A DNA stretch of 24,000 nt from Rickettsiales bacterium (GTDB lineage Bacteria > Pseudomonadota > Alphaproteobacteria > Rickettsiales > UBA8987). The DNA lies in contig JANRLM010000010.1 in assembly GCA_033762595.1 (NCBI GenBank), positions 9,494-33,493 of the forward strand, read 5' to 3'. Numbering within the stretch: the stretch's first letter is position 1; each line of letters opens with the position of its first letter. A model generated the notes under the pieces. That model searched no databases. It saw only the letters and a list, made by a program, of their open reading frames with translations, and had not been told where the DNA came from. The position numbers were made by a program, and so were the translations under genes. Shown here piece after piece: positions 2,108 through 16,315 of the stretch.

Positions 2108-2198
2108 TCTTAAGTTATTGATTTACATATTATTTCTTAAATTTCTTATTTGCAAAATCTCTTCTAAAAATTTGATTTGGGTAATATTTGGGTAATAA
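2090..2198 (+). repeat. Direct repeat copy A: tRNA-Glu 3' end plus ~90 nt downstream (candidate attL-side)
   Basis: GTCCCGTCGGG (2090-2100) and TGATTTACATATTATTTCTTAAATTTCTTATTTGCAAAATCTCTTCTAAAAATTTGATTTGGGTAATATTTGGGTAATAA (2119-2198) recur at 6220-6314, at roughly four-fifths identity by eye. Confidence 0.65.
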
Positions 2199-2371
2199 GC
2201 CGATTGAAAAATTCGCTACTATAACCATATAAAAAACACCCCCTAGGGGAGATTTTGAAATTTTGATTAGGCTTTATAGTGGTGCTTATACAAGATAAAC
2301 ACTAATATTGTTTTGGTACAATTTATTAATGGGGGGGGTAGCCCCTTGCAAGGGTGGGGTATAATATAGAT

Positions 2372-2734
2372 GGGTAGAGGCGGTTACACACTTTAGAGTT
2401 AAGGAATGTTTATTTTGATTGTTAAAAAGCAAATGGGGCAATAAGATAAATCTTAATGAATCTTAAAACTTGTTTGACTAACCTGAAATAATCTATTAGC
2501 CTTTCTTTTGTGCAGGGAAATCTGCATTGGGTGTCGAAACCTATTCAAGAAGCGGTTTACAACATATACCGTATAAAAATATGCCCTTCCTAGTCTTCAT
2601 GGCTGGGAGGTGGTTATACATGTCCAAGCTGTAAGGCTAAAAATAGCCACAGTCGCACTTCTTGTCGGCTTTCGAACTCCCAGCTACCATGAAAATATCT
2701 AACTAACCTTAAGATAAACGCTTGGTAGCTTTTT
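2372..2734 (+). ncRNA. Candidate structured RNA or long structured leader (unclassified)
   Basis: An ORF-free stretch that is visibly GC-richer than its surroundings. A perfect TATAAT lies at 2360-2365. Local hairpins: TGCAG-GGAAAT-CTGCA at 2511-2526 and CTGT..GGCT-AAAAAT-AGCC..ACAG at 2629-2652. A 9-bp long-range helix pairs GGCTGGGAG (2601-2609) with CTCCCAGCT (2677-2685). A terminal hairpin GCTACCA (2683-2689)/TGGTAGC (2723-2729) is followed by TTTTT. I recognise no known RNA family. Confidence 0.2.
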
Positions 2735-2761
2735 ATTATAATTAATAAAAGGGAGCTTTCT

Positions 2762-2953
2762 ATGAAGTCTAAAATTCTAACAATAATAATTGCAACTGGC
2801 GTTTTTCTTTCTGTAAGCAGTGCATTTGCTCAAGGCTATCAAAGGGTGAATGGCTATTACAAAAACAACGGAACTTATGTTCAGCCTCACTTTAGAACTC
2901 GTGCAGATGGCAACCCATATAATAATTATGGCAGTAGCTTAAACGGCAATTAA
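2762..2953 (+). CDS. Small secreted protein (signal peptide plus Gly/Tyr/Asn-rich mature part), function unknown
   Basis: 63 aa. MKSKILTIIIATGVFLSVSSAFA-QG is a classical Sec signal with an AxA site. SD GGGAG sits 6 nt upstream of the ATG, a TATAAT lies at 2737-2742, and a strong terminator follows. Confidence 0.6.
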   Translation: MKSKILTIIIATGVFLSVSSAFAQGYQRVNGYYKNNGTYVQPHFRTRADGNPYNNYGSSLNGN

Positions 2954-2960
2954 TTTATTG

Positions 2961-2992
2961 GGCTAGTGATGAAAAGTTACTAGCCTTTTTTT
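2961..2992 (+). terminator. Rho-independent terminator after the small secreted-protein gene
   Basis: Stem GGCTAGT(GA)/(TT)ACTAGCC spans 2961-2985 and is followed by a run of 7 T (2986-2992). Confidence 0.65.
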
Positions 2993-3045
2993 ATGTTAGT
3001 TTTTTCTGCACTTCTCTTACTTTTCTTGGTCTTGATTGCTTATCT

Positions 3046-3101
3046 TATCTACTCCAGCATAAAAGGAATAGAAGATGATTTAGATGGGTATTGAAGATAA
3101 A
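3046..3101 (+). repeat. 56-bp direct repeat, copy a (inner boundary repeat of the quorum-sensing cassette)
   Basis: TATCTACTCCAGCATAAAAGGAATAGAAGATGATTTAGATGGGTATTGAAGATAAA. This is identical to 6044-6099 except for 3 substitutions and has no indel. Confidence 0.8.
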
Positions 3102-3191
3102 AAATTTAATGTTTTTGCATGTAAAATAAATTGCAAAACCCTATAAATATTGGTTGCTGCCATTCTATTAAAACTAATTAGTTTGCTGTTT

Positions 3192-3374
3192 TCAAAAATA
3201 AGAAAGCAGACCTTCCATAATTACATCTTCATCTTGTGCATCAAATTTATCTATAAAATTTTGATGATATTTTTCAGGATAGATAATATTATCTTTTGTA
3301 TGAAATAATTCAATTCTAGGTTTAAAATCCATTTTTAATTGACAATTAATGTTTTTATAGCTTAGGTAGAACAA
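3192..3374 (-). CDS. Hypothetical small protein divergent from the XRE gene (46-60 aa depending on start)
   Basis: The track ORF starts at a TTG (3374). An internal ATG at 3332-3330 would give 46 aa (MDFKPRIELFHTKDN...). Neither start has a clear SD and no motif is recognisable. Weak call. Confidence 0.25.
   Translation of the reverse strand: MFYLSYKNINCQLKMDFKPRIELFHTKDNIIYPEKYHQNFIDKFDAQDEDVIMEGLLSYF
3335..3349. promoter_or_regulatory. 15-bp perfect palindrome TTAATTG-A-CAATTAA overlapping a consensus -35 (TTGACA, 3339-3344); candidate operator/promoter of the xre-luxR operon
   Basis: Read directly from the sequence. It lies ~45 nt upstream of the XRE start codon, in the divergent intergenic region. 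The downstream -10 is only weak. Confidence 0.3.
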
Positions 3375-3392
3375 AATCCAAGTTGTTCAACC

Positions 3393-3743
3393 ATGAATAG
3401 CAAAATTTTAGAAATCAGAGAAAGTATTTCTAATAACTTAAAAGAGCTCAGATTATCAAAAGGGCTGAGTCAAAAAGATGCTGGAAATGTTCTTTCTATT
3501 TCTCCTCAACAATATCAAAAATATGAAAAAGGGCAAGATAGAATGTCTGCTGATTCATTAATTCATCTTCTAAATGAGTTAGATGTAGATGTTTCAGTTT
3601 TCATGAATGAAGTTTACAAAAATTGTAATAATAATGATAAAAAAGAATCCTCAGATTTGGAGTTAATTGGTCTATTCAGCAATATTTCAAAAGAAAATAA
3701 GGAATTTTTATTAACAATGATGAAAATTATGTCTGGTAAATAA
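3393..3743 (+). CDS. XRE-family helix-turn-helix transcriptional regulator
   Basis: 116 aa. LKELRLSKGLSQKDAGNVLSISPQQYQKYEKGQDRMSADSLIHLL is a canonical HTH_3/Cro-C1 motif. Its stop is 17 nt before the luxR-type gene, so the two are probably co-transcribed. Confidence 0.75.
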   Translation: MNSKILEIRESISNNLKELRLSKGLSQKDAGNVLSISPQQYQKYEKGQDRMSADSLIHLLNELDVDVSVFMNEVYKNCNNNDKKESSDLELIGLFSNISKENKEFLLTMMKIMSGK

Positions 3744-3760
3744 CCAAAATATTTTAGGCA

Positions 3761-4501
3761 ATGTCGATATTAGAGGAGTTCATATTAAAATCTAATAGAA
3801 TCAATAATATTGATGAGCTTTTTATTGAATATAGAAAAACCCTTGAATATTTCGGTTTTGATAAAGTTGTTTATAGTTTAATTACTGATCACTACAAAGC
3901 TGGTCTTCAGGCCGGTCATGCAATAATGGGTAATTACCCGCAAGATTTTTTAAAACATTATATGGAAAAGGGCTATCAAAAGCTTGATCCTGTTCCCAAG
4001 CAAGCATTTAAGAGCGTTAAGCCATTTGCTTGGAAATCCATCTCAGAAGAAAGAGAACTTAACAAAGATGAGTTGCTAGTTATGAATGAAGCAGATGATG
4101 CTAAACTTCTTAGCGGAGTTGGAATACCTCTTTATGGTGCAAATGGGGAAATAGCAGGGGTTGGAATTGCAAGCTCAGAAAGAGATTTAGATTTGAATAT
4201 TGATATTTTATCAATGTTAAGGGCTATTACGCATCAATTTCACTTAGTTTACTTGGATTTATGCAAACGCCCAAATAATGATAATAAAATTGCCTTAACT
4301 AATAGAGAAAGAGAAATATTGTTGTGGTATGCATCTGGCAAGAAAGATGGCGATATTGCAGATATTATTGGAATATCATATGATTCTGTAAGGTTTCACT
4401 CAAAGAATATATTTAAGAAATTAGATGTTAATGACAGGGTTTTTGCAGTCGTAAAAGCCATAAGACTTGGATTAATAACTCCGAATTATGTTTTCAACTA
4501 G
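3761..4501 (+). CDS. luxR: LuxR-family quorum-sensing regulator (N-terminal autoinducer-binding domain plus C-terminal GerE/LuxR HTH)
   Basis: 246 aa. The C-terminus LTNREREILLWYASGKKDGDIADIIGISYDSVRFHSKNIFKKLDVNDRVFAVVKAI is the LuxR-type HTH. The N-terminal ~170 aa has the length and the Y/W/D-containing pattern of autoinducer-binding domains. Confidence 0.85.
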   Translation: MSILEEFILKSNRINNIDELFIEYRKTLEYFGFDKVVYSLITDHYKAGLQAGHAIMGNYPQDFLKHYMEKGYQKLDPVPKQAFKSVKPFAWKSISEERELNKDELLVMNEADDAKLLSGVGIPLYGANGEIAGVGIASSERDLDLNIDILSMLRAITHQFHLVYLDLCKRPNNDNKIALTNREREILLWYASGKKDGDIADIIGISYDSVRFHSKNIFKKLDVNDRVFAVVKAIRLGLITPNYVFN

Positions 4502-4503
4502 AT

Positions 4504-4525
4504 ATCCTACCTACCTTGGTAGGAT
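4504..4525. promoter_or_regulatory. lux-box-like inverted repeat ATCCTACC-TACCTT-GGTAGGAT upstream of the luxI-type gene
   Basis: Perfect 8-bp arms with a 6-bp spacer. It contains CT-N12-AG, the minimal las/lux-box pattern. Its centre is ~60 nt upstream of the luxI ATG, which fits a position near -42 relative to a short-leader promoter. It starts 3 nt after the luxR stop, so a terminator-hairpin role cannot be excluded, although no T-run follows. Confidence 0.45.
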
Positions 4526-4573
4526 GAATTAACTTTTGCTTTAAGGCATTCTCCCAAAAAACAGGGAGAGTAT

Positions 4574-5227
4574 ATGACTATAGAATGCGTTACCTTAGAA
4601 ACCAATCATCTTTTTGATGGCAACCCAATAGCAGAACAGCATAAACTTAGATATAGAAGTATAATTCAAAGACAAGGCTGGGAAGTGCCAACAATAAGAA
4701 ATCTTGAATTTGATCAATATGACAACCCTGCAACCACTTACCTCATTTGGCGAGATTATAATGGAATTGCGAGAGGTGTTTCTCGTTTATATCCAACAGA
4801 TAGACCATATATGTTAAAGGAAGTTTTTCCAAAATTAGCTGAAAATGTTCCACTTCCATCATCAGTAGATATATGGGAAGGAACAAGATTCTGCGTAGAT
4901 AAAGGCTTAGATGCCCCTTTAAGAAAAAGAATTATTCAAGAAATTATCCTAGGTTATTTAGAATATGGCTTGCAAGCTGGAATTAAAAAATATGTTGGTA
5001 TTATGCTTCCAATCTATTGGAATAATATATTTGAAAAAAATGGCTGGAAAGTTAGCTATTGGAGTGATGTTATAACAATCGATAACGGCGATAGAATTCG
5101 CTCTGGCGAGGTTGAAGTTTCAGAGGAAAATCTCGCTTTAGTAAGAAAAAAAACCGGTATCAATGAGTCAATTATAAACTATGGTAAATATGAAGGTGAA
5201 TATGCAAACAACAGAAAAGCAATCTAA
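4574..5227 (+). CDS. luxI: LuxI-family acyl-homoserine-lactone synthase
   Basis: 217 aa. RYRSIIQRQGWEVP...EFDQYD, GVSRLYPTDRPYMLKEVF and WEGTRFCVDK match the conserved LuxI-family blocks (R..F..R..W, E.D.YD, RL.PT...ML, WE.SRF.V). SD GGGAGA lies upstream. Confidence 0.85.
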   Translation: MTIECVTLETNHLFDGNPIAEQHKLRYRSIIQRQGWEVPTIRNLEFDQYDNPATTYLIWRDYNGIARGVSRLYPTDRPYMLKEVFPKLAENVPLPSSVDIWEGTRFCVDKGLDAPLRKRIIQEIILGYLEYGLQAGIKKYVGIMLPIYWNNIFEKNGWKVSYWSDVITIDNGDRIRSGEVEVSEENLALVRKKTGINESIINYGKYEGEYANNRKAI

Positions 5228-5495
5228 AAAAGTTGATGTTTCTACATTTATTAGTGCATTATACTTTTTGGTATCTGAATCAAATAAAGCCGGCAGTAAA
5301 AGCATCACTAAAATTTTAGAAAAAGCTTATTTGGATATAATATCTACCGCCAAGGAAGATGAATCCCTCTCTTTCGGAGAAGATATGTTAACAATGATGA
5401 ATTTTATTGGTAAATATTGCCAAAAAAATGACTTTGAAAGAAACGAATTTCTAAATATTGCAGAAAAAATTAATGAATTAAAAGCTTTGAATTAA
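5202..5495 (+). CDS. Hypothetical ~97-aa helical protein overlapping the 3' end of luxI
   Basis: The track ORF runs 5181..5495. I prefer the ATG at 5202 because AGGTG sits just upstream. It overlaps the luxI stop by 26 nt, which suggests translational coupling. No motif is recognised. Confidence 0.45.
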   Translation: MQTTEKQSKKVDVSTFISALYFLVSESNKAGSKSITKILEKAYLDIISTAKEDESLSFGEDMLTMMNFIGKYCQKNDFERNEFLNIAEKINELKALN

Positions 5496-5545
5496 ATTTG
5501 GTAAAATCTTAAAGACAATTTAATTCGAATTTGCATCAATAATTT

Positions 5546-5842
5546 CTAAAGCCTTTTTCTGAGTTTGCAAATTTCATCAAAAATAAATTCAATTTCGTCA
5601 ATGAGATTATAAATTTCTTTATCAGATAAAAAATCAGTTTTGAAGATTTCTTTACTTTTTAGGTCAACTGACTTTTCAAGAAGAGCCTCAAGCCTTTTTT
5701 GAAGGGTTTCAGGCAGTTGGTTAATTCTAAAATGAAGCAAAGATTGCAAACTTGCGTTGAGCTTTTTTCTAAAATCAGGCTCTTCTTTTTCTAGATCTTC
5801 AATTGCGAGGGCAAAAGCGAAGTAAGATTCTTCAATATTCAT
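5546..5842 (-). CDS. Hypothetical 98-aa acidic helical protein
   Basis: The ORF has AAGG ~8 nt upstream of its ATG and converges on the luxI-linked ORF. No motif is recognised. Confidence 0.45.
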   Translation of the reverse strand: MNIEESYFAFALAIEDLEKEEPDFRKKLNASLQSLLHFRINQLPETLQKRLEALLEKSVDLKSKEIFKTDFLSDKEIYNLIDEIEFIFDEICKLRKRL

Positions 5843-5851
5843 AAACTTGCC

Positions 5852-6046
5852 TTAACTTGAAATATTTTTATGATTAGATTTATTGCCAAATTTTTCAAGA
5901 ATATAATCTATAACACCAACATTTCTAATTAAACCAATTAGTTGGTTATAGCTTCCTTTTACATAGAAATTTTTAGGGTCTGATACCCAATAATACTCTT
6001 TTAGGATAGATTTTAGGTCTATCAGAAGTAATTTTCGTGAACCTAT
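5852..6046 (-). pseudogene. 5'-truncated gene remnant ending 10 nt upstream of the 98-aa ORF
   Basis: A minus-strand frame is open for 64 codons (...LKEYYWVSDPKNFYVKGSYNQLIGLIRNVGVIDYILEKFGNKSNHKNISS*) with no ATG, GTG or TTG start. The frame closes (TAG) at the edge of repeat copy b (6044). That is consistent with truncation at an insertion junction. Confidence 0.25.
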
Positions 6047-6099
6047 CTACTCCAGCATCAAAGGAATAGAAGATGATTTAGGTGTGTATTGAAGATAAA
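6044..6099 (+). repeat. 56-bp direct repeat, copy b
   Basis: TATCTACTCCAGCATCAAAGGAATAGAAGATGATTTAGGTGTGTATTGAAGATAAA. Matches 3046-3101 at 53 of 56 positions. Confidence 0.8.
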
Positions 6100-6219
6100 T
6101 AGCAATCTAAATTAAACCTATAGACATTATAAAAAAACTTGGGGGTATTTTTGGGGGTATCAGTTAAAATGAGATGGCGGATTATCCCTATATATCAATT
6201 TCTTAATAAATTAAGGCGT

Positions 6220-6314
6220 GTCCCGTCGGGCACTGATTTATATCTTATTTATTAAATTTTTTGTTAGCAAAAGCTCTACTATAAAATTTGATTTTGGTAA
6301 TTTTTGGGTAATAA
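6220..6314 (+). repeat. Direct repeat copy B: degenerate tRNA-Glu 3' fragment plus downstream sequence (candidate attR-side)
   Basis: GTCCCGTCGGGCAC followed by TGATTTATATCTTATTTATTAAATTTTTTGTTAGCAAAAGCTCTACTATAAAATTTGATTTTGGTAATTTTTGGGTAATAA. It aligns with 2090-2198. It lacks the ACCA end and ~14 nt relative to copy A. Confidence 0.65.
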
Positions 6315-6422
6315 TATTTTTTTGAATTATAACTTCTTTAGCCATACTCAATCGCTTCAAATTTTCCGCTTGAGATATTAAAAAAACTCTGAAATAAAAG
6401 TTGAAAATTTTCTATTATTATA

Positions 6423-6929
6423 ATGAAAGATAAAAATATAGATTACGCAAAGCTCATAGATAAAGCCATGCATGATGTGGTTAAGTCTGTTTTAAGGCAA
6501 ATTACAAAAGATGGCTTGCCAGGGCAACATCATTTTTTCATCACCTTCAAAACTGATGCCCAAGGCGTTATGATGTCTGATGAATTACGCAAAAGATACC
6601 CAAAAGAGATGACTATTGTGCTTCAGCACCAATTTTATGATTTAGAAGTTGAAGATCAATATTTCTCAATAGTTTTGAGCTTTGATCATGTAAAACAAAA
6701 TATTACAATACCATTTTCTGCCCTTGTTTCTTTTGTTGATCCAAGTGTAAAATTCGGTTTGCAGTTCAATACGATAATGCTTGAAGATGCAGATTCTAAT
6801 GCGGAGCTTATCTCTGAGGGCAATAAAAAGCCTGCTTCAAAAAAGAATTCTTCCAAGCAAAGCAAAAAAATAGATGGTAATTCAGGCTCTAATGTTGTAA
6901 CCCTAGATTCATTTAGGAAAAAAGATTAA
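6423..6929 (+). CDS. sspB: ClpXP adaptor SspB (alphaproteobacterial type)
   Basis: 168 aa. HHFFITFKT..GV, YPKEMTIVLQHQFYDLEV, IPFSALVSFVDPSVKFGLQF, a disordered Lys/Ser-rich linker, and a C-terminal VVTLDSFRKK ClpX-binding-like tail. This matches my recollection of alpha-type SspB. Confidence 0.7.
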   Translation: MKDKNIDYAKLIDKAMHDVVKSVLRQITKDGLPGQHHFFITFKTDAQGVMMSDELRKRYPKEMTIVLQHQFYDLEVEDQYFSIVLSFDHVKQNITIPFSALVSFVDPSVKFGLQFNTIMLEDADSNAELISEGNKKPASKKNSSKQSKKIDGNSGSNVVTLDSFRKKD

Positions 6930-6939
6930 TGGAGGCAAA

Positions 6940-7203
6940 ATGGTTGATTCAATTAAAGATACTATAGATTCTCTGCCTAAAACTAAGGGCAAGGGAGAAT
7001 CTGTGGAGTTTATGAAAGATGAGCAATATATTGATTCTTGCCAAGAAATTATCAAAGAAGCCTTGCAGAAAGGCTATGATGTCATTCACATGGAAAACGG
7101 CGATATTATTACAACTGGCACAAAAGTTATTGTTACGCAATTCCGCTGGGATGCTGATAAACAAAAGATGGTAAAAGTTCTCAGCAAGCAAAAAGGTGAG
7201 TGA
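6940..7203 (+). CDS. Small conserved-looking hypothetical protein (87 aa)
   Basis: A strong SD (GGAGG) lies 5 nt upstream of the ATG and 10 nt after the sspB stop, and a clean terminator follows. No family is recognised. Confidence 0.6.
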   Translation: MVDSIKDTIDSLPKTKGKGESVEFMKDEQYIDSCQEIIKEALQKGYDVIHMENGDIITTGTKVIVTQFRWDADKQKMVKVLSKQKGE

Positions 7204-10941: not shown

Positions 10942-10977
10942 AGATTAGAAGTCAGAGTTAAGTTATCGACATTGTTA

Positions 10978-11036
10978 GGCAAGTATATATTTAAGCTCCA
11001 TAACCTCCAATAGTCACCCCGCATTTATTGCGGGGT
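10978..11036 (+). repeat. ~59-bp repeat unit ending in the ACCCCGCATTTATTGCGGGGT hairpin
   Basis: GGCAAGTATATATTTAAGCTCCATAACCTCCAATAGTCACCCCGCATTTATTGCGGGGT. It aligns at ~80% by eye with the reverse complement of 16201-16260. A 5' fragment recurs at 15944-15967. Confidence 0.7.
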
Positions 11037-11087
11037 TAATTGTTGAAATTACTTATAAACCTTAGGTTATGAGCTTGTTTTATGGTT

Positions 11088-11134
11088 GACCCCGCAATAC
11101 TGAAGGCAGATGTTACTGCCTGAAGCTGGGGTGA
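11088..11134 (-). repeat. Extended-loop palindromic element (same family)
   Basis: GACCCCGCAATACTGAAGGCAGATGTTACTGCCTGAAGCTGGGGTGAT. Its reverse complement matches 15991-16040 almost base for base. Confidence 0.75.
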
Positions 11135-11207
11135 TACTAAAGAGAAAAAACTACAGAAATTAATTAAAATCTACCTTTACCTAACAATACCTAAAACTAA
11201 GATATAA

Positions 11208-13166
11208 CTAAATCCCCTCGCCAATTTTTGCACGGCTATATTCTTCATCAATAGGTTTAACGAGGTTTGCATCAATATATTCCATTAATTTTGCGACTGA
11301 TTCATCAACAGAATTTTTAGCGGTATCAATCACAACATCAGCATTTTCAGGAACATCAAATTTATCATTAATCCCAGTAAAATTCTTGATTTCTCCAGCA
11401 ATCGCCTTTTTATATAAACCTTTAGGATCTCTCTGTTTGCAGGTTTCTACATCAGCTTTGATGTAGATTGAATGATAGGAATCACCAGCTGCAACACGGG
11501 CTTTGTCTCTATCCTCTTTGTAAGGTGAAATAAACGCCGTGATAACTATAACGCCCGCTTGAGCAAAAAGTGCTGCAACTTCACCAACTCGGCGGATATT
11601 CTCGCTTCTGCCTTCCTTAGAGAAATCTAAATCCGCACTTAAACCGCCACGAATATTATCACCATCTAACACGAAAACCTGATAGCCTTTTTCAAAAAGT
11701 TTCTGCTGTAAAGCAAGTGCAATAGTTGTTTTACCTGAGCCTGAAAGTCCGCTAAACCAAAGCACGCCTCCCTTATGGCCATTCGCAATCGCCCTGCGAG
11801 TTGGATCAATGCGAGATTCAACTGGATAAAGATTATCTGATTTTGGTTGAGATTTAGTGCGTTGATCCGAAAATCCCTTCAAATCAATTATACCACCGCC
11901 TATTGTGCGATAATTCTCAACAATAACAAATCTGCCAGTTTTAGCGTTGTTTGCGAATTCATCAACGCAAGCAAGACCACGAATTCTAAATACTACTTCC
12001 GCAACGGAATTTTTCTGCACTTCATCTTTTTTGCCAGTGAAACTTAAATCTTCAGTATCAACAACTCTTTCTATTGCCTTAACTTCCGCCTGATATTCAG
12101 AGGTATTTATTTTGATTAAATATTTTTTGCCTTCCTTGATTGGCTCATCACCTAGCCAGAAAATTTTACCTCTAAAAATATTGGTTAAAATTGGTGCGTT
12201 TTCAAGATGGCTAACAACTTGCCCGCGTTCTGCGAAAATTTGTTCAGATAAAGTTATGCCGACTGATTGCCCTGCAAAAGCTTGAGTAACAGGCGTTTTA
12301 GCCGGTGGCCAAGTTTCAATAGAGTTTATTTTTACTTTGCGATTTGAAGGCGAGAAAACTATTTCATCGCCTACTTTTAGAGAGCCAGCCTCAATTCTAC
12401 CAGCGATAATGCGTCTTTCATCAAACTTATAAACATCTTGCACAGGCAAGCGAAGTGAGAGATTTTCAAGGCTAGGCTTAGGTGCAAAGCCATCTAACGC
12501 CTGCATAATTGAAGGGCCTTTATACCAAGCCATATTTGAGGATTTGCTTGTGATATTATCCCCCTCACGGCCAGAAATTGGAATTATAAAGGTTGGAGTA
12601 ACGCCAATTTCTGCCAAATATTCTGTGTATTGTTTTTCAATCTCACGGAATTTTTCTTCAGAATAATTAACTAAATCCATTTTATTTACTGCCACTGCAA
12701 TTTGAGAAACACCAAGCAGAGATAGCAAATAGCCATGACGGCGAGATTGCTCTTTCACGCCTTCTTTTGCATCAATTACTAGAATTGCAGCCTCAGAATT
12801 TGCCGCCCCAGACACCATATTTTTTAGGAATTCCTTATGCCCCGGCGCATCAATAATAACATAATTTCGCTTTTCAGTTTTGAACCATAATTGTGTTGTA
12901 TCAATGGTAATGCCTTGATCCCTCTCAGCTTGCAGGGCATCAAGCAAAAAGCTATATTCAAACGGCATTCCACGACGAACGCAAGAGGCTTTAATTTGCT
13001 CAACTTTCCCTTCTGGTAGGGAATCAGTGTCATAAAATAAACGCCCGATAAGCGTAGATTTTCCGTGATCAACATGTCCTACAATTACGATTTTTAATTG
13101 CTCCTTTGATTCCATGGTTGATGGTTGATGGTTAATAGTTGATGGTTTTATGTTTGTCTTAGTCAT
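11208..13166 (-). CDS. cysNC: Bifunctional CysN-like GTPase (sulfate adenylyltransferase subunit 1) / adenylylsulfate kinase CysC
   Basis: 652 aa. GTPase motifs [14 protein letters not shown] and NKMD, plus [16 protein letters not shown] (CysN-like). The C-terminal APS kinase has GLSGSGKTT and FVLDGDNIR. The start at 13166 is supported by SD AGGAA 6 nt upstream. Confidence 0.85.
13115..13146 (-). repeat. 32-bp perfect inverted repeat, left arm (inside cysNC codons 7-17)
   Basis: On the minus strand it reads ACCATCAACTATTAACCATCAACCATCAACCA, identical to 14170-14201 on the plus strand. It has heptamer periodicity (ACCATCA ACTATTA ACCATCA ACCATCA ACCA). Confidence 0.9.
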
Positions 13167-13765: not shown

Positions 13766-15064
13766 ATGCCTAAAGAAATATTAATGCCAGCACTTTCGCC
13801 AACAATGACAGAAGGTAACCTTGCTAAATGGACGAAAAAAGAGGGTGATAAAATAAAAGCTGGTGATGTAATTGCTGAAATTGAAACAGATAAAGCTACA
13901 ATGGAAGTTGAGGCTGTAGATGAGGGAATTCTTGGAAAAATCATCATTCAGCAAGGCACAAACCAAGTGAAAGTGAATCAAGTAATCGCATTAATTTTGG
14001 AAGATGGCGAAGATAAAAAAGCTCTTGATGCTTACCAAATCAAGCAACCAGAAGCCCCTAAGAAGGAAGAAGTCGCTAACCAGAATTCTAGTATCAGTGC
14101 AAGCGTTAGTAAAGCTCCGAGCATCGCTCCGCAGATTACTGCCGCCCCAAGAATTGCCCCACAAATTGCACCATCAACTATTAACCATCAACCATCAACC
14201 AATACTAAAGCTAGCCCCCTAGCTAAAAAAGTGGCACAAAATAGCGGTGTTGATTTATCTTCAGTGAAGGGAACAGGGCCAAAGGGCAGGGTGGTTAAGG
14301 GTGATGTTGAAGATTTCCTTGCAAATGGTGGCGGTTCTAATGTTATCCGCAGAAATCCAGTAGCGTTTGAGAGTTTTCCAAATTCAAATATCCGCCAAGT
14401 TATTGCCAGAAGGCTTCTTGAATCTAAACAACAAGTTCCGCATTTTTACCTAACGATTGATTTGGATGTTGATAATCTGCTTGAAACTCGTCGCCAAATT
14501 AATGACTTAGCACCAGTTTCAGAAGATGGCAAACCGCTCTACAAAATCTCCGTAAATGATTTGGTTATCAAGGCTTCAGCCCTTGCCCTCAGGGATGTTC
14601 CAGCGGCAAATTCAAGCTGGTATGATGACGCAATTGTGCAATATAATAATGTTGATATTTCGGTTGCGGTGGCGACCGATGGCGGTTTGATTACGCCAAT
14701 CATCTTCAATGCGGATCAAAAATCTGTAATTGCAATTTCAAACGAAATGAAAACACTTGCGAAGAAAGCTCGTGAAAACAAGCTTAAACCTGAAGAATTC
14801 CAAGGCGGTGGTTTTTCAATTTCAAATCTTGGAATGTATGGAATTAAAACTTTCTCAGCGATTATAAACCCGCCACAATCTTGCATTTTAGCGGTTGGCG
14901 CATCTGAGGAAAAACCAGTTGTGAAAAACGGCCAAATCAAAACTGCAAATATTATGAGCGTTACACTTTCCGTAGATCACCGCTCGGTTGATGGTGCAGT
15001 TGGTGCAGAATTCCTCCAATCCTTCAAAAAATATATTGAGAATCCCGCAGGATTGTTGGTGTGA
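13766..15064 (+). CDS. pdhC: Pyruvate dehydrogenase complex E2, dihydrolipoyllysine-residue acetyltransferase
   Basis: 432 aa. One lipoyl domain ([15 protein letters not shown]), an Ala/Pro-rich linker, a peripheral-subunit-binding domain ([33 protein letters not shown]), and a catalytic domain with DHRSVDGA. Confidence 0.9.
14170..14201 (+). repeat. 32-bp perfect inverted repeat, right arm (inside the pdhC linker)
   Basis: ACCATCAACTATTAACCATCAACCATCAACCA, read CCA TCA ACT ATT AAC CAT CAA CCA TCA ACC = [10 protein letters not shown]. The frame and peptide are the same as in cysNC. Confidence 0.9.
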
Positions 15065-15886: not shown

Positions 15887-15942
15887 AGATAGTTAAAGTA
15901 AAAAAATAATTATGTTCACTAAGTATATTTTTTGGTATTTAT

Positions 15943-16315
15943 AGGTAAGTATAGATTTTATTAAATTATCTGCTGTTTTTCTTCTATAATATCACCCCCG
16001 CTTCAGGCAGTAACATCTGCCTTCAGTATTGCGGGGGTTAAAGAGATTGTTAGTAATATAAGACTTCATTCCCGCCCCGTGTTAAGCACGGGGTAAACTC
16101 CAGCGGGAATCCATAAAATACACTGGATACCCGCTTTCGTGGGTATGAATAGAAAAGGTTGAATAATTCCAGCGAGTTGCTTTATGCTTAACCCCTATAA
16201 ATACCCGCAATAAATGCGGGGTAACAATTGTTGGCTATTGAGCTTAAATCTATACCTACCGAAACTAAGGGGTAGAAACACCTCAACTTTCGCCCAGCAA
16301 TAAATGCGGGGTGAT
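15943..16315. repeat. Cluster of at least five palindromic (REP/RPE-like) elements in an ORF-free spacer
   Basis: Elements:
- 15991-16040: ACCCCCGC...GCGGGGGT stem with a 29-nt insert.
- 16068-16110: nested ATTCCCGC/GCGGGAAT around CCCGTG-TTAAG-CACGGG.
- 16127-16146: ATACCC...GGGTAT.
- 16203-16222 and 16292-16315: CCCGCAATAAATGCGGGG-type copies in reverse orientation. Confidence 0.8.

Follow-up and report, generated by a model that had tools for sequence, protein, structure and literature searches.

Organization of the locus

The 24,000-nucleotide window analysed here (C10:9494-33493, that is, contig JANRLM010000010.1 of assembly GCA_033762595.1) comes from the 1.67-Mb, 124-contig genome of a Rickettsiales-like bacterium, labelled G000. 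It contains a LuxI/LuxR quorum-sensing (QS) module that lies between two copies of a 56-bp direct repeat, within a larger islet anchored at a tRNA-Glu gene. One copy of the repeat completes the 3' end of p33, a very short membrane-peptide gene, and the other is a non-functional fragment of that gene, as in a pair of att sites. The topology read from the sequence is that of an insertion in which a gene end recombined with a copy of itself on incoming DNA. Comparisons were made with two congeners, G001 (a metagenome-assembled genome) and G002, and with G012, which belongs to a different genus of the same family; searches across the order covered 301 genomes, and the search of representative proteins covered 1.84 billion (1.84e9) sequences.

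Copy a (3046-3101, + strand) and copy b (6044-6099, + strand) are identical at 53 of 56 positions (95%) and align without indels. Their starts lie 2998 nt apart, and 2,942 bp (3102-6043) separate them. This match, first described in a sequence-only reading of the window, is borne out by repeat finding, BLAST, and DNA and pattern searches. The longest exact runs common to both copies are 15, 22, 2 and 14 nt. When the islet was compared by BLAST with the whole assembly, the pair scored an E value of 2.7e-17 and no third copy appeared; a DNA search and a 38-nt pattern search with up to 3 mismatches likewise placed the repeat at only two positions in the genome. The 56-mer was not found in 16 other genomes of the family, in GTDB species representatives, in JGI metagenome contigs (exact and codon-degenerate pattern) or in IMG/VR. 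A match in G002 (contig C10) to 3082-3110 lies inside a UvrD-like helicase gene and was rejected as a chance match. A dispersed repeat, which the sequence-only reading had named as a finding that would speak against an insertion, was rejected on the same grounds: there are two copies in G000, two in G001 and none in the wider searches.

The attL-like copy a consists of the last 15 codons of p33, the stop codon and 9 nt beyond it. It was expected to form the 3' end of this gene, which it does, with 15 full codons in place of the 16 originally counted. The attR-like copy b retains the p33 frame (…IYSSIKGIEDDLGVY*) and lacks the N-terminus, as had been described; this frame extends upstream no farther than 5994 and includes no start codon. 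Copy a has one change of its own, a synonymous one (ATA vs ATC), and copy b has two, both non-synonymous (D to G, G to V). The 9 nt after the stop codon are common to both copies and missing from the copies in G001.

The target gene p33 (2993-3094, + strand) has 33 codons and encodes a hydrophobic helix followed by an acidic tail. Its ortholog in G001 has the same length, without indels. The tails are identical at 42 of 48 nt, and codons 1-18 at 30 of 54 nt, distributed over the three codon positions as 6, 15 and 9 of 18. As the second positions, which specify the hydrophobic residues, are kept (15 of 18), the pattern is of a coding type, and p33 is probably a genuine gene. Counting against this, the ATG has no evident Shine-Dalgarno sequence and lies only 7 nt after the end of a strong intrinsic-terminator-like hairpin (2960-2986, + strand; an 11-pair stem and a T-run). 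A six-frame search of the 301 genomes of the order returned no credible other p33.

Cargo between the repeats

The interval between the copies opens with p60m (3192-3374, - strand), a small open reading frame (ORF) without a family match, divergent from a gene for an XRE-type helix-turn-helix (HTH) regulator (3393-3743, + strand; PF01381, 1.5e-10). The latter shares 37% identity with its positional counterpart in G012, and it also weakly matches models of restriction-modification control proteins. It is followed on the same strand by a LuxR-type receptor gene (3761-4501; PF03472, 1.3e-25; PF00196, 3.4e-15), a LuxI-type acyl-homoserine lactone (acyl-HSL) synthase gene (4574-5227; PF00765, 7e-24) and p104 (5181-5495), which encodes a small protein and is the last gene of the conserved QS module. 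All three domains expected of a LuxI/LuxR acyl-HSL pair scored above their cut-offs. Between p104 and the gene that takes its place in G012, homology is weak (24% over 71 aa, pairwise E 1e-4).

LuxI is present in 22 of the 301 genomes and in neither congener. Apart from the 56-mer itself, the whole of 3095-6240 has no counterpart in G001 or G002. In G012, XRE, LuxR, LuxI and the weakly homologous small protein after LuxI sit between rplT and rpoH; a divergent small ORF occupies the position of p60m, its homology to p60m not being demonstrable, and no direct repeats were found around the module. Because G012 holds XRE, LuxR, LuxI and a small protein together at another place, the portable QS unit spans about 3192-5495.

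The remainder of the cargo is of another kind. An orphan ORF, p98m (5546-5842, - strand), is in frame with an upstream startless frame of 64 codons, rem64 (5852-6046, - strand), with one TAA between them; rem64 is cut at the edge of copy b, and the complement of its bounding TAG lies inside that copy (6047-6049). Together they are probably one decayed gene without its 5' end. Besides itself, p98m/rem64 gave one marginal, repetitive match (E 8.8e-4) among the representative proteins, and rem64, alone or read through with p98m, had no credible match in Pfam, NCBIfam, PHROGs or PADLOC. Weak six-frame matches of rem64 within the order were to RimM or unrelated ORFs; others, repetitive and interrupted by stops, lie at contig ends of one genome (G050). 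Exact-sequence look-ups of p33, p63 (a neighbouring gene described below), LuxI and p98m in public assemblies returned no record.

In the sequence-only reading, XRE, LuxR and LuxI were enclosed by the repeats in about 2.9 kb and a startless 64-codon minus-strand frame closed at the edge of copy b. Pfam supports the three genes, small ORFs accompany them, and the frame lies where it was described, with its bounding TAG just inside the repeat. The claim that the repeats bracket the QS cassette exactly does not hold, as about 0.5-0.55 kb of unrelated, decayed orphan sequence (5546-6046) is also inside; nor could the disrupted gene be identified, there being no homolog of the 64-codon remnant among the representative proteins.

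The same block in the sister genome

Both further copies of the block are in G001. On contig C3 it forms the end of the intact p33 ortholog, which directly follows p63 about 300 nt from a tRNA-Cys gene, with no cassette. The copy on contig C2 is a fragment that stands alone, has no start codon and corresponds to 3038-3092; its left edge is 8 nt from that of copy b. Over 55 positions this fragment shows 3 differences from the G000 allele and 6 from the p33 of its own genome, and this closer likeness to the G000 allele suggests that it arrived with mobile DNA. In Smith-Waterman comparisons no homology beyond the block was found among the four copies above shuffled controls, except in the upstream flank of copy a and the C3 copy. 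Since the flanks are otherwise unrelated, homology ends sharply at the gene end in every context.

The C2 fragment directly abuts the stop codon of a tyrosine recombinase that is cut at residue 236 and matches positions 12-85 of the 172 in PF00589; seven full-length homologs measure 357-368 aa, and no C-terminal piece of the cut enzyme was found nearby. The cut enzyme has an AlpA-like gene on its upstream side and hsdM-hsdS-hsdR on its downstream side. The fragment is part of a composite 12-kb island (G001:C2:488180-500410; L037/L018) that is absent from G000, with the order tRNA-Asn, full-length 396-aa P4-type integrase, type I restriction-modification genes with a trypsin-like protease gene, p33 fragment, and a remnant element (AlpA, HTH protein, truncated recombinase) that adjoins thiE. 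A second copy of the tRNA-Asn end was not found for this island.

Two expectations of the sequence-only reading can be judged here. The 56-mer was to be sought beside different cargo in a related genome, and the C2 fragment, which adjoins type I restriction-modification genes, is such a case. It was also to be sought as a single-copy empty site. There is indeed a p33 without the cassette in G001, but its downstream context differs, so that it does not represent a clean empty site.

The ~360-aa family to which the cut recombinase is related occurs in 54 of the 301 genomes. Its homologs often directly precede methylase or restriction genes, as at several of the loci inspected. At two of the seven homolog loci (G013, G023, G091, G029, G045, G242 and G026; L100-L106), the islands are bounded by repeats of tRNA 3' ends, 47 and 51 nt long. 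Blocks of identity of ~50 nt are therefore normal for islands of this order.

How the repeats may have arisen

Four features argue for the topology of an insertion: the gene on the left is intact, its counterpart on the right is a dead 3' fragment, the DNA that separates the two is accessory, and the flanks are unrelated. The cargo is regarded as accessory because it is absent from both congeners and because the QS core occurs as a unit in another genus. That two independent, isolated fragments have nearly the same edges argues for a defined site. The ~50-nt identity blocks of other islands in the order, and the place of the repeat at a tRNA-Glu hotspot, fit an integration as well. The explanation favoured here, and only tentatively, is that the repeats are the attL/attR-like scar of a site-specific insertion into the end of p33, in the manner of the cis-mobilizable elements (CIMEs). 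An incoming circular molecule would have carried its own copy of the last ~56 nt of p33 and recombined with the resident p33 end, the recombination being site-specific and carried out by a recombinase that has since been lost or that acted in trans. On the left, copy a would then complete an intact p33, and copy b on the right would be a dead remnant with no start codon; the 2,942 bp between them would be the cargo, namely the XRE-LuxR-LuxI-p104 module and the decayed orphan gene. The present structure would be non-autonomous, a CIME-like islet within the tRNA-Glu islet. The circular intermediate, the enzyme and the succession of steps are inferred.

The inner integration that regenerates the 3' end of its target, as the sequence-only reading had put it, thus stands in part: the gene-end duplication, the intact left and dead right copies and the accessory interior are all present, and the recombinase, the clean empty site and tidy attP arms are not.

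A number of observations weigh against a site-specific insertion. No recombinase was found in 3102-6043 with Pfam. The only tyrosine recombinases in G000 are on contigs C88 and C34 and, as a 436-aa protein beside tRNA-Pro and tRNA-Thr, on C49; none of the three is linked to p33. The cut recombinase of G001 was considered as the cognate enzyme and is an unlikely one, as the islands of its family are bounded by tRNA-end repeats at two of the seven loci. The 56-mer folds no better than shuffled controls (z 0.0 to 0.95), and there are no terminal inverted repeats at the ends of the insert. Both isolated fragments abut truncated genes (rem64 in G000, the cut recombinase in G001), and such joints look more like illegitimate joints than tidy attP arms. 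In G001, the downstream flank of p33 on C3 is unrelated to the sequence from 6100 onward. The 56-mer is carried by G000 and G001 only, with four known copies, two in each, and the 5% difference between copies a and b implies that the event is old. Of these points, the lack of a linked recombinase, the truncated-gene joints and the lack of a fold or inverted repeats weaken the reading with a lost recombinase in favour of two others, set out below, that need no dedicated enzyme.

The first is a Campbell-type insertion, which is possible, if somewhat unlikely. A circle produced by illegitimate excision beside p33 in a related strain would have been inserted by a RecA-type single crossover through the 56 bp. 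The joint that closed the circle would then be the junction of rem64 and the 56-mer, and the resulting topology would be the same as that of a site-specific insertion without a dedicated recombinase. The truncated, startless rem64 abuts copy b just as a circle-closing joint would, the G001 fragment also abuts a truncated gene, and the insert contains no recombinase. The 9 nt past the stop codon, common to copies a and b and missing in G001, suggest a donor that was a close relative and had an identical gene end. Efficient RecA recombination, however, has a lower limit of homology that is near 56 bp, and the donor arrangement was not found. It would also have to be by coincidence that illegitimate breakage struck p33 twice, independently, at points separated by just 8 nt (3038 and 3046).

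Alternatively, a tandem duplication of 3046-6043, with the joint 6043/3046, could have been followed by a deletion that left 56 nt of the second copy. The QS cassette would already have been downstream of p33 beforehand. This, too, would require no recombinase, and the joint of rem64 and copy b has the form of a duplication joint in which two gene-internal points are fused. It is an unlikely course of events, as it requires two separate steps, leaves unexplained how a cassette absent from both congeners arrived beside p33, and does not account for the further isolated fragment on contig C2 of G001, whose edges nearly coincide with those of copy b.

In a third view, the last ~55 nt of p33 would be a dedicated docking or exchange site, at which a recombinase would shuffle cargo and which would function like attC or pdif, though within a coding sequence. 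Isolated copies do lie at boundaries of unrelated gene blocks in two genomes, their edges being nearly the same, and the cargo differs in each case (QS in G000, type I restriction-modification in G001). Even so, this is quite unlikely, since only four copies are known, in two genomes, no associated recombinase was found, and the 56-mer has no attC-like hairpin, no GTT core and no fold beyond controls, the last of these also arguing against a dif-like dyad. More doubtful still is the extension of this view by which docking at the p33 end would be the means for islands of these Rickettsiales-like bacteria to exchange cassettes with one another, in a system separate from integrons and Xer/pdif modules.

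A transposon with a target-site duplication was rejected, as there are no inverted repeats at the ends and Pfam revealed no transposase domain; a duplication of 56 bp also far exceeds the usual length of target-site duplications. Chance similarity or an assembly artefact is extremely improbable: the assembly is in 124 contigs and probably metagenome-assembled like that of G001, but the pair has an E value of 2.7e-17 against the whole genome, the shared exact runs of at most 22 nt seem too short for a mis-join at usual assembly k-mer sizes, and the same block is kept in a second genome.

Surroundings of the repeats

The outer islet is anchored by tRNA-Glu (UUC; 2033-2107, + strand), which was identified by ARAGORN and scores 62.6 bits against the Rfam tRNA model. 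The end of its T-arm and ~90 nt of downstream sequence (2090-2198, + strand) recur as a decayed tRNA-Glu 3' end with downstream sequence at the other end of the islet (6216-6314, + strand), with 86% identity over 81 nt to 6234-6314; in the alignment an 11-nt piece of the T-arm recurs at 6221-6231. These two ends define 2108-6314 as a tRNA-linked islet, which has an outer repeat of its own and encloses the repeat structure at p33, in agreement with the nesting proposed in the sequence-only reading.

This tRNA-Glu gene is a hotspot for islands in all three congeners. In G002 it is followed by an intact 434-aa P4-type integrase and then by AlpA-like and cytosine-methylase genes (L099 2034-3648), and in G001 by an apparent truncated integrase N-terminus and then other cargo (L019 7856-8307), which includes a 668-aa ThiC-like ORF, named by eye. 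Just past the outer repeat in G000, a GC-richer segment (2229-2415) has partial copies at C67:105-288 and C49:38704-38814 (93% and 87%); all copies in G000 begin at the same left edge (2229-2231), and the segment is absent from G001. Downstream of the islet lie sspB-p87 (6360-7201). In G001 (L019 4149-5037) and G002 (L099 3-113) their counterparts are inverted and on the other side of rdgB/tRNA-Glu, so that a local rearrangement accompanies the islet.

Upstream of the cargo, p33 belongs to a module, here called module M (2522-3092), together with a structured RNA and p63. The module is 91% identical to contig C3 of G001, whereas core genes neighbouring the islet are ~75-80% identical. The gene p63 (2762-2953, + strand) encodes a small secreted peptide of a phrog_29674-like family (PHROG match 3e-10) and is identical to its G001 ortholog at 174 of 192 nt; its distant homologs are on phage-like contigs and have no p33-like neighbour. 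The spacer between p63 and p33 is 39 nt long in G000 vs an unrelated 92 nt in G001.

The structured RNA (2601-2693, + strand) resembles sRNA-Xcc1 (RF02221, 30 bits, below the gathering score) and is 100% identical in G000 and G001, despite the lower identity of the core genes. Matches of this kind score 30-35 bits, compared with a gathering score of 53. Besides the G001 copy on C3 (L017), two further families of the order have divergent copies (L108 1501-1596; L109 155-241, - strand), and a comparison of three genomes reveals compensatory changes in 9 of the 27 predicted pairs.

Farther along the window, inverted repeats of ~225 nt (10975-11199 and 15926-16263; three adjoining pairs of arms, 79-90% complementary) flank ~4.7 kb. 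A separate, perfect inverted repeat of 32 nt is at 13115-13146 and 14170-14201.

Relation to known systems and significance

CIMEs have been described as a class of elements that keep attL and attR and have lost their integrase (PMC5704250). Judged by analogy, the closest described category for the p33 islet is such a CIME-like, decayed integrative element nested in a tRNA island. As in CIMEs, repeats flank the cargo, the target regains its 3' end from one of them, genes for an integrase or for transfer are lacking inside, and the whole is nested in a larger island, which fits stepwise accretion. Unlike CIMEs, the p33 islet has no known cognate integrase or parental element, a truncated gene abuts its attR-like copy, and its target is a genus-restricted 33-codon peptide gene and not a housekeeping or tRNA gene.

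Islands of tRNA-targeting tyrosine integrases, such as the P4-type enzymes at tRNA-Glu and tRNA-Asn of the congeners, share with the p33 islet a comparable block of identity, a regenerated 3' end and accessory cargo. They differ in their target, which in the p33 islet is the end of a protein-coding gene, and in the integrase: the tRNA islands contain one (434 aa at tRNA-Glu of G002, 396 aa at tRNA-Asn of G001) and the p33 islet contains none.

Short repeated sites also bound recombinase-less cargo in integrons (attC), at Xer dif/pdif sites and in integrative mobile elements exploiting Xer recombination (IMEX). The 56-mer differs from such sites in that it has no fold beyond controls and lacks the marks of an integron cassette, an attC-like imperfect hairpin with R''/R' core sites (GTTRRRY), there being no GTT triplet in it; no 11-6-11 dif-like dyad is evident on inspection. 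No IntI is present in G000, where no specific search for it was made and all three tyrosine recombinases are on contigs other than that of the islet.

With respect to the cargo, a QseM/QseC-TraR-TraI quorum-sensing switch controls the excision of integrative and conjugative elements in alphaproteobacteria (PMC8789080). The likeness of 3192-5495 to this switch is one of architecture only, an HTH regulator and a divergent small gene standing beside LuxR/LuxI on mobile DNA. In contrast to that system, p60m has no family match, so that homology to QseM is not demonstrable, and the islet has no genes for conjugation, excision or a recombination directionality factor.

An insert without an integrase between att-like repeats is an already familiar kind of decayed island. 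The p33 islet would add to it a complete LuxI/LuxR module, present as a discrete, acquired islet in the small genome of an uncultured Rickettsiales-like bacterium, and would mark the 3' end of a very short peptide gene as a place where mobile DNA has joined more than once in this genus. If recombination at the repeats is still possible, the cassette could be mobilised, or lost, in one piece.

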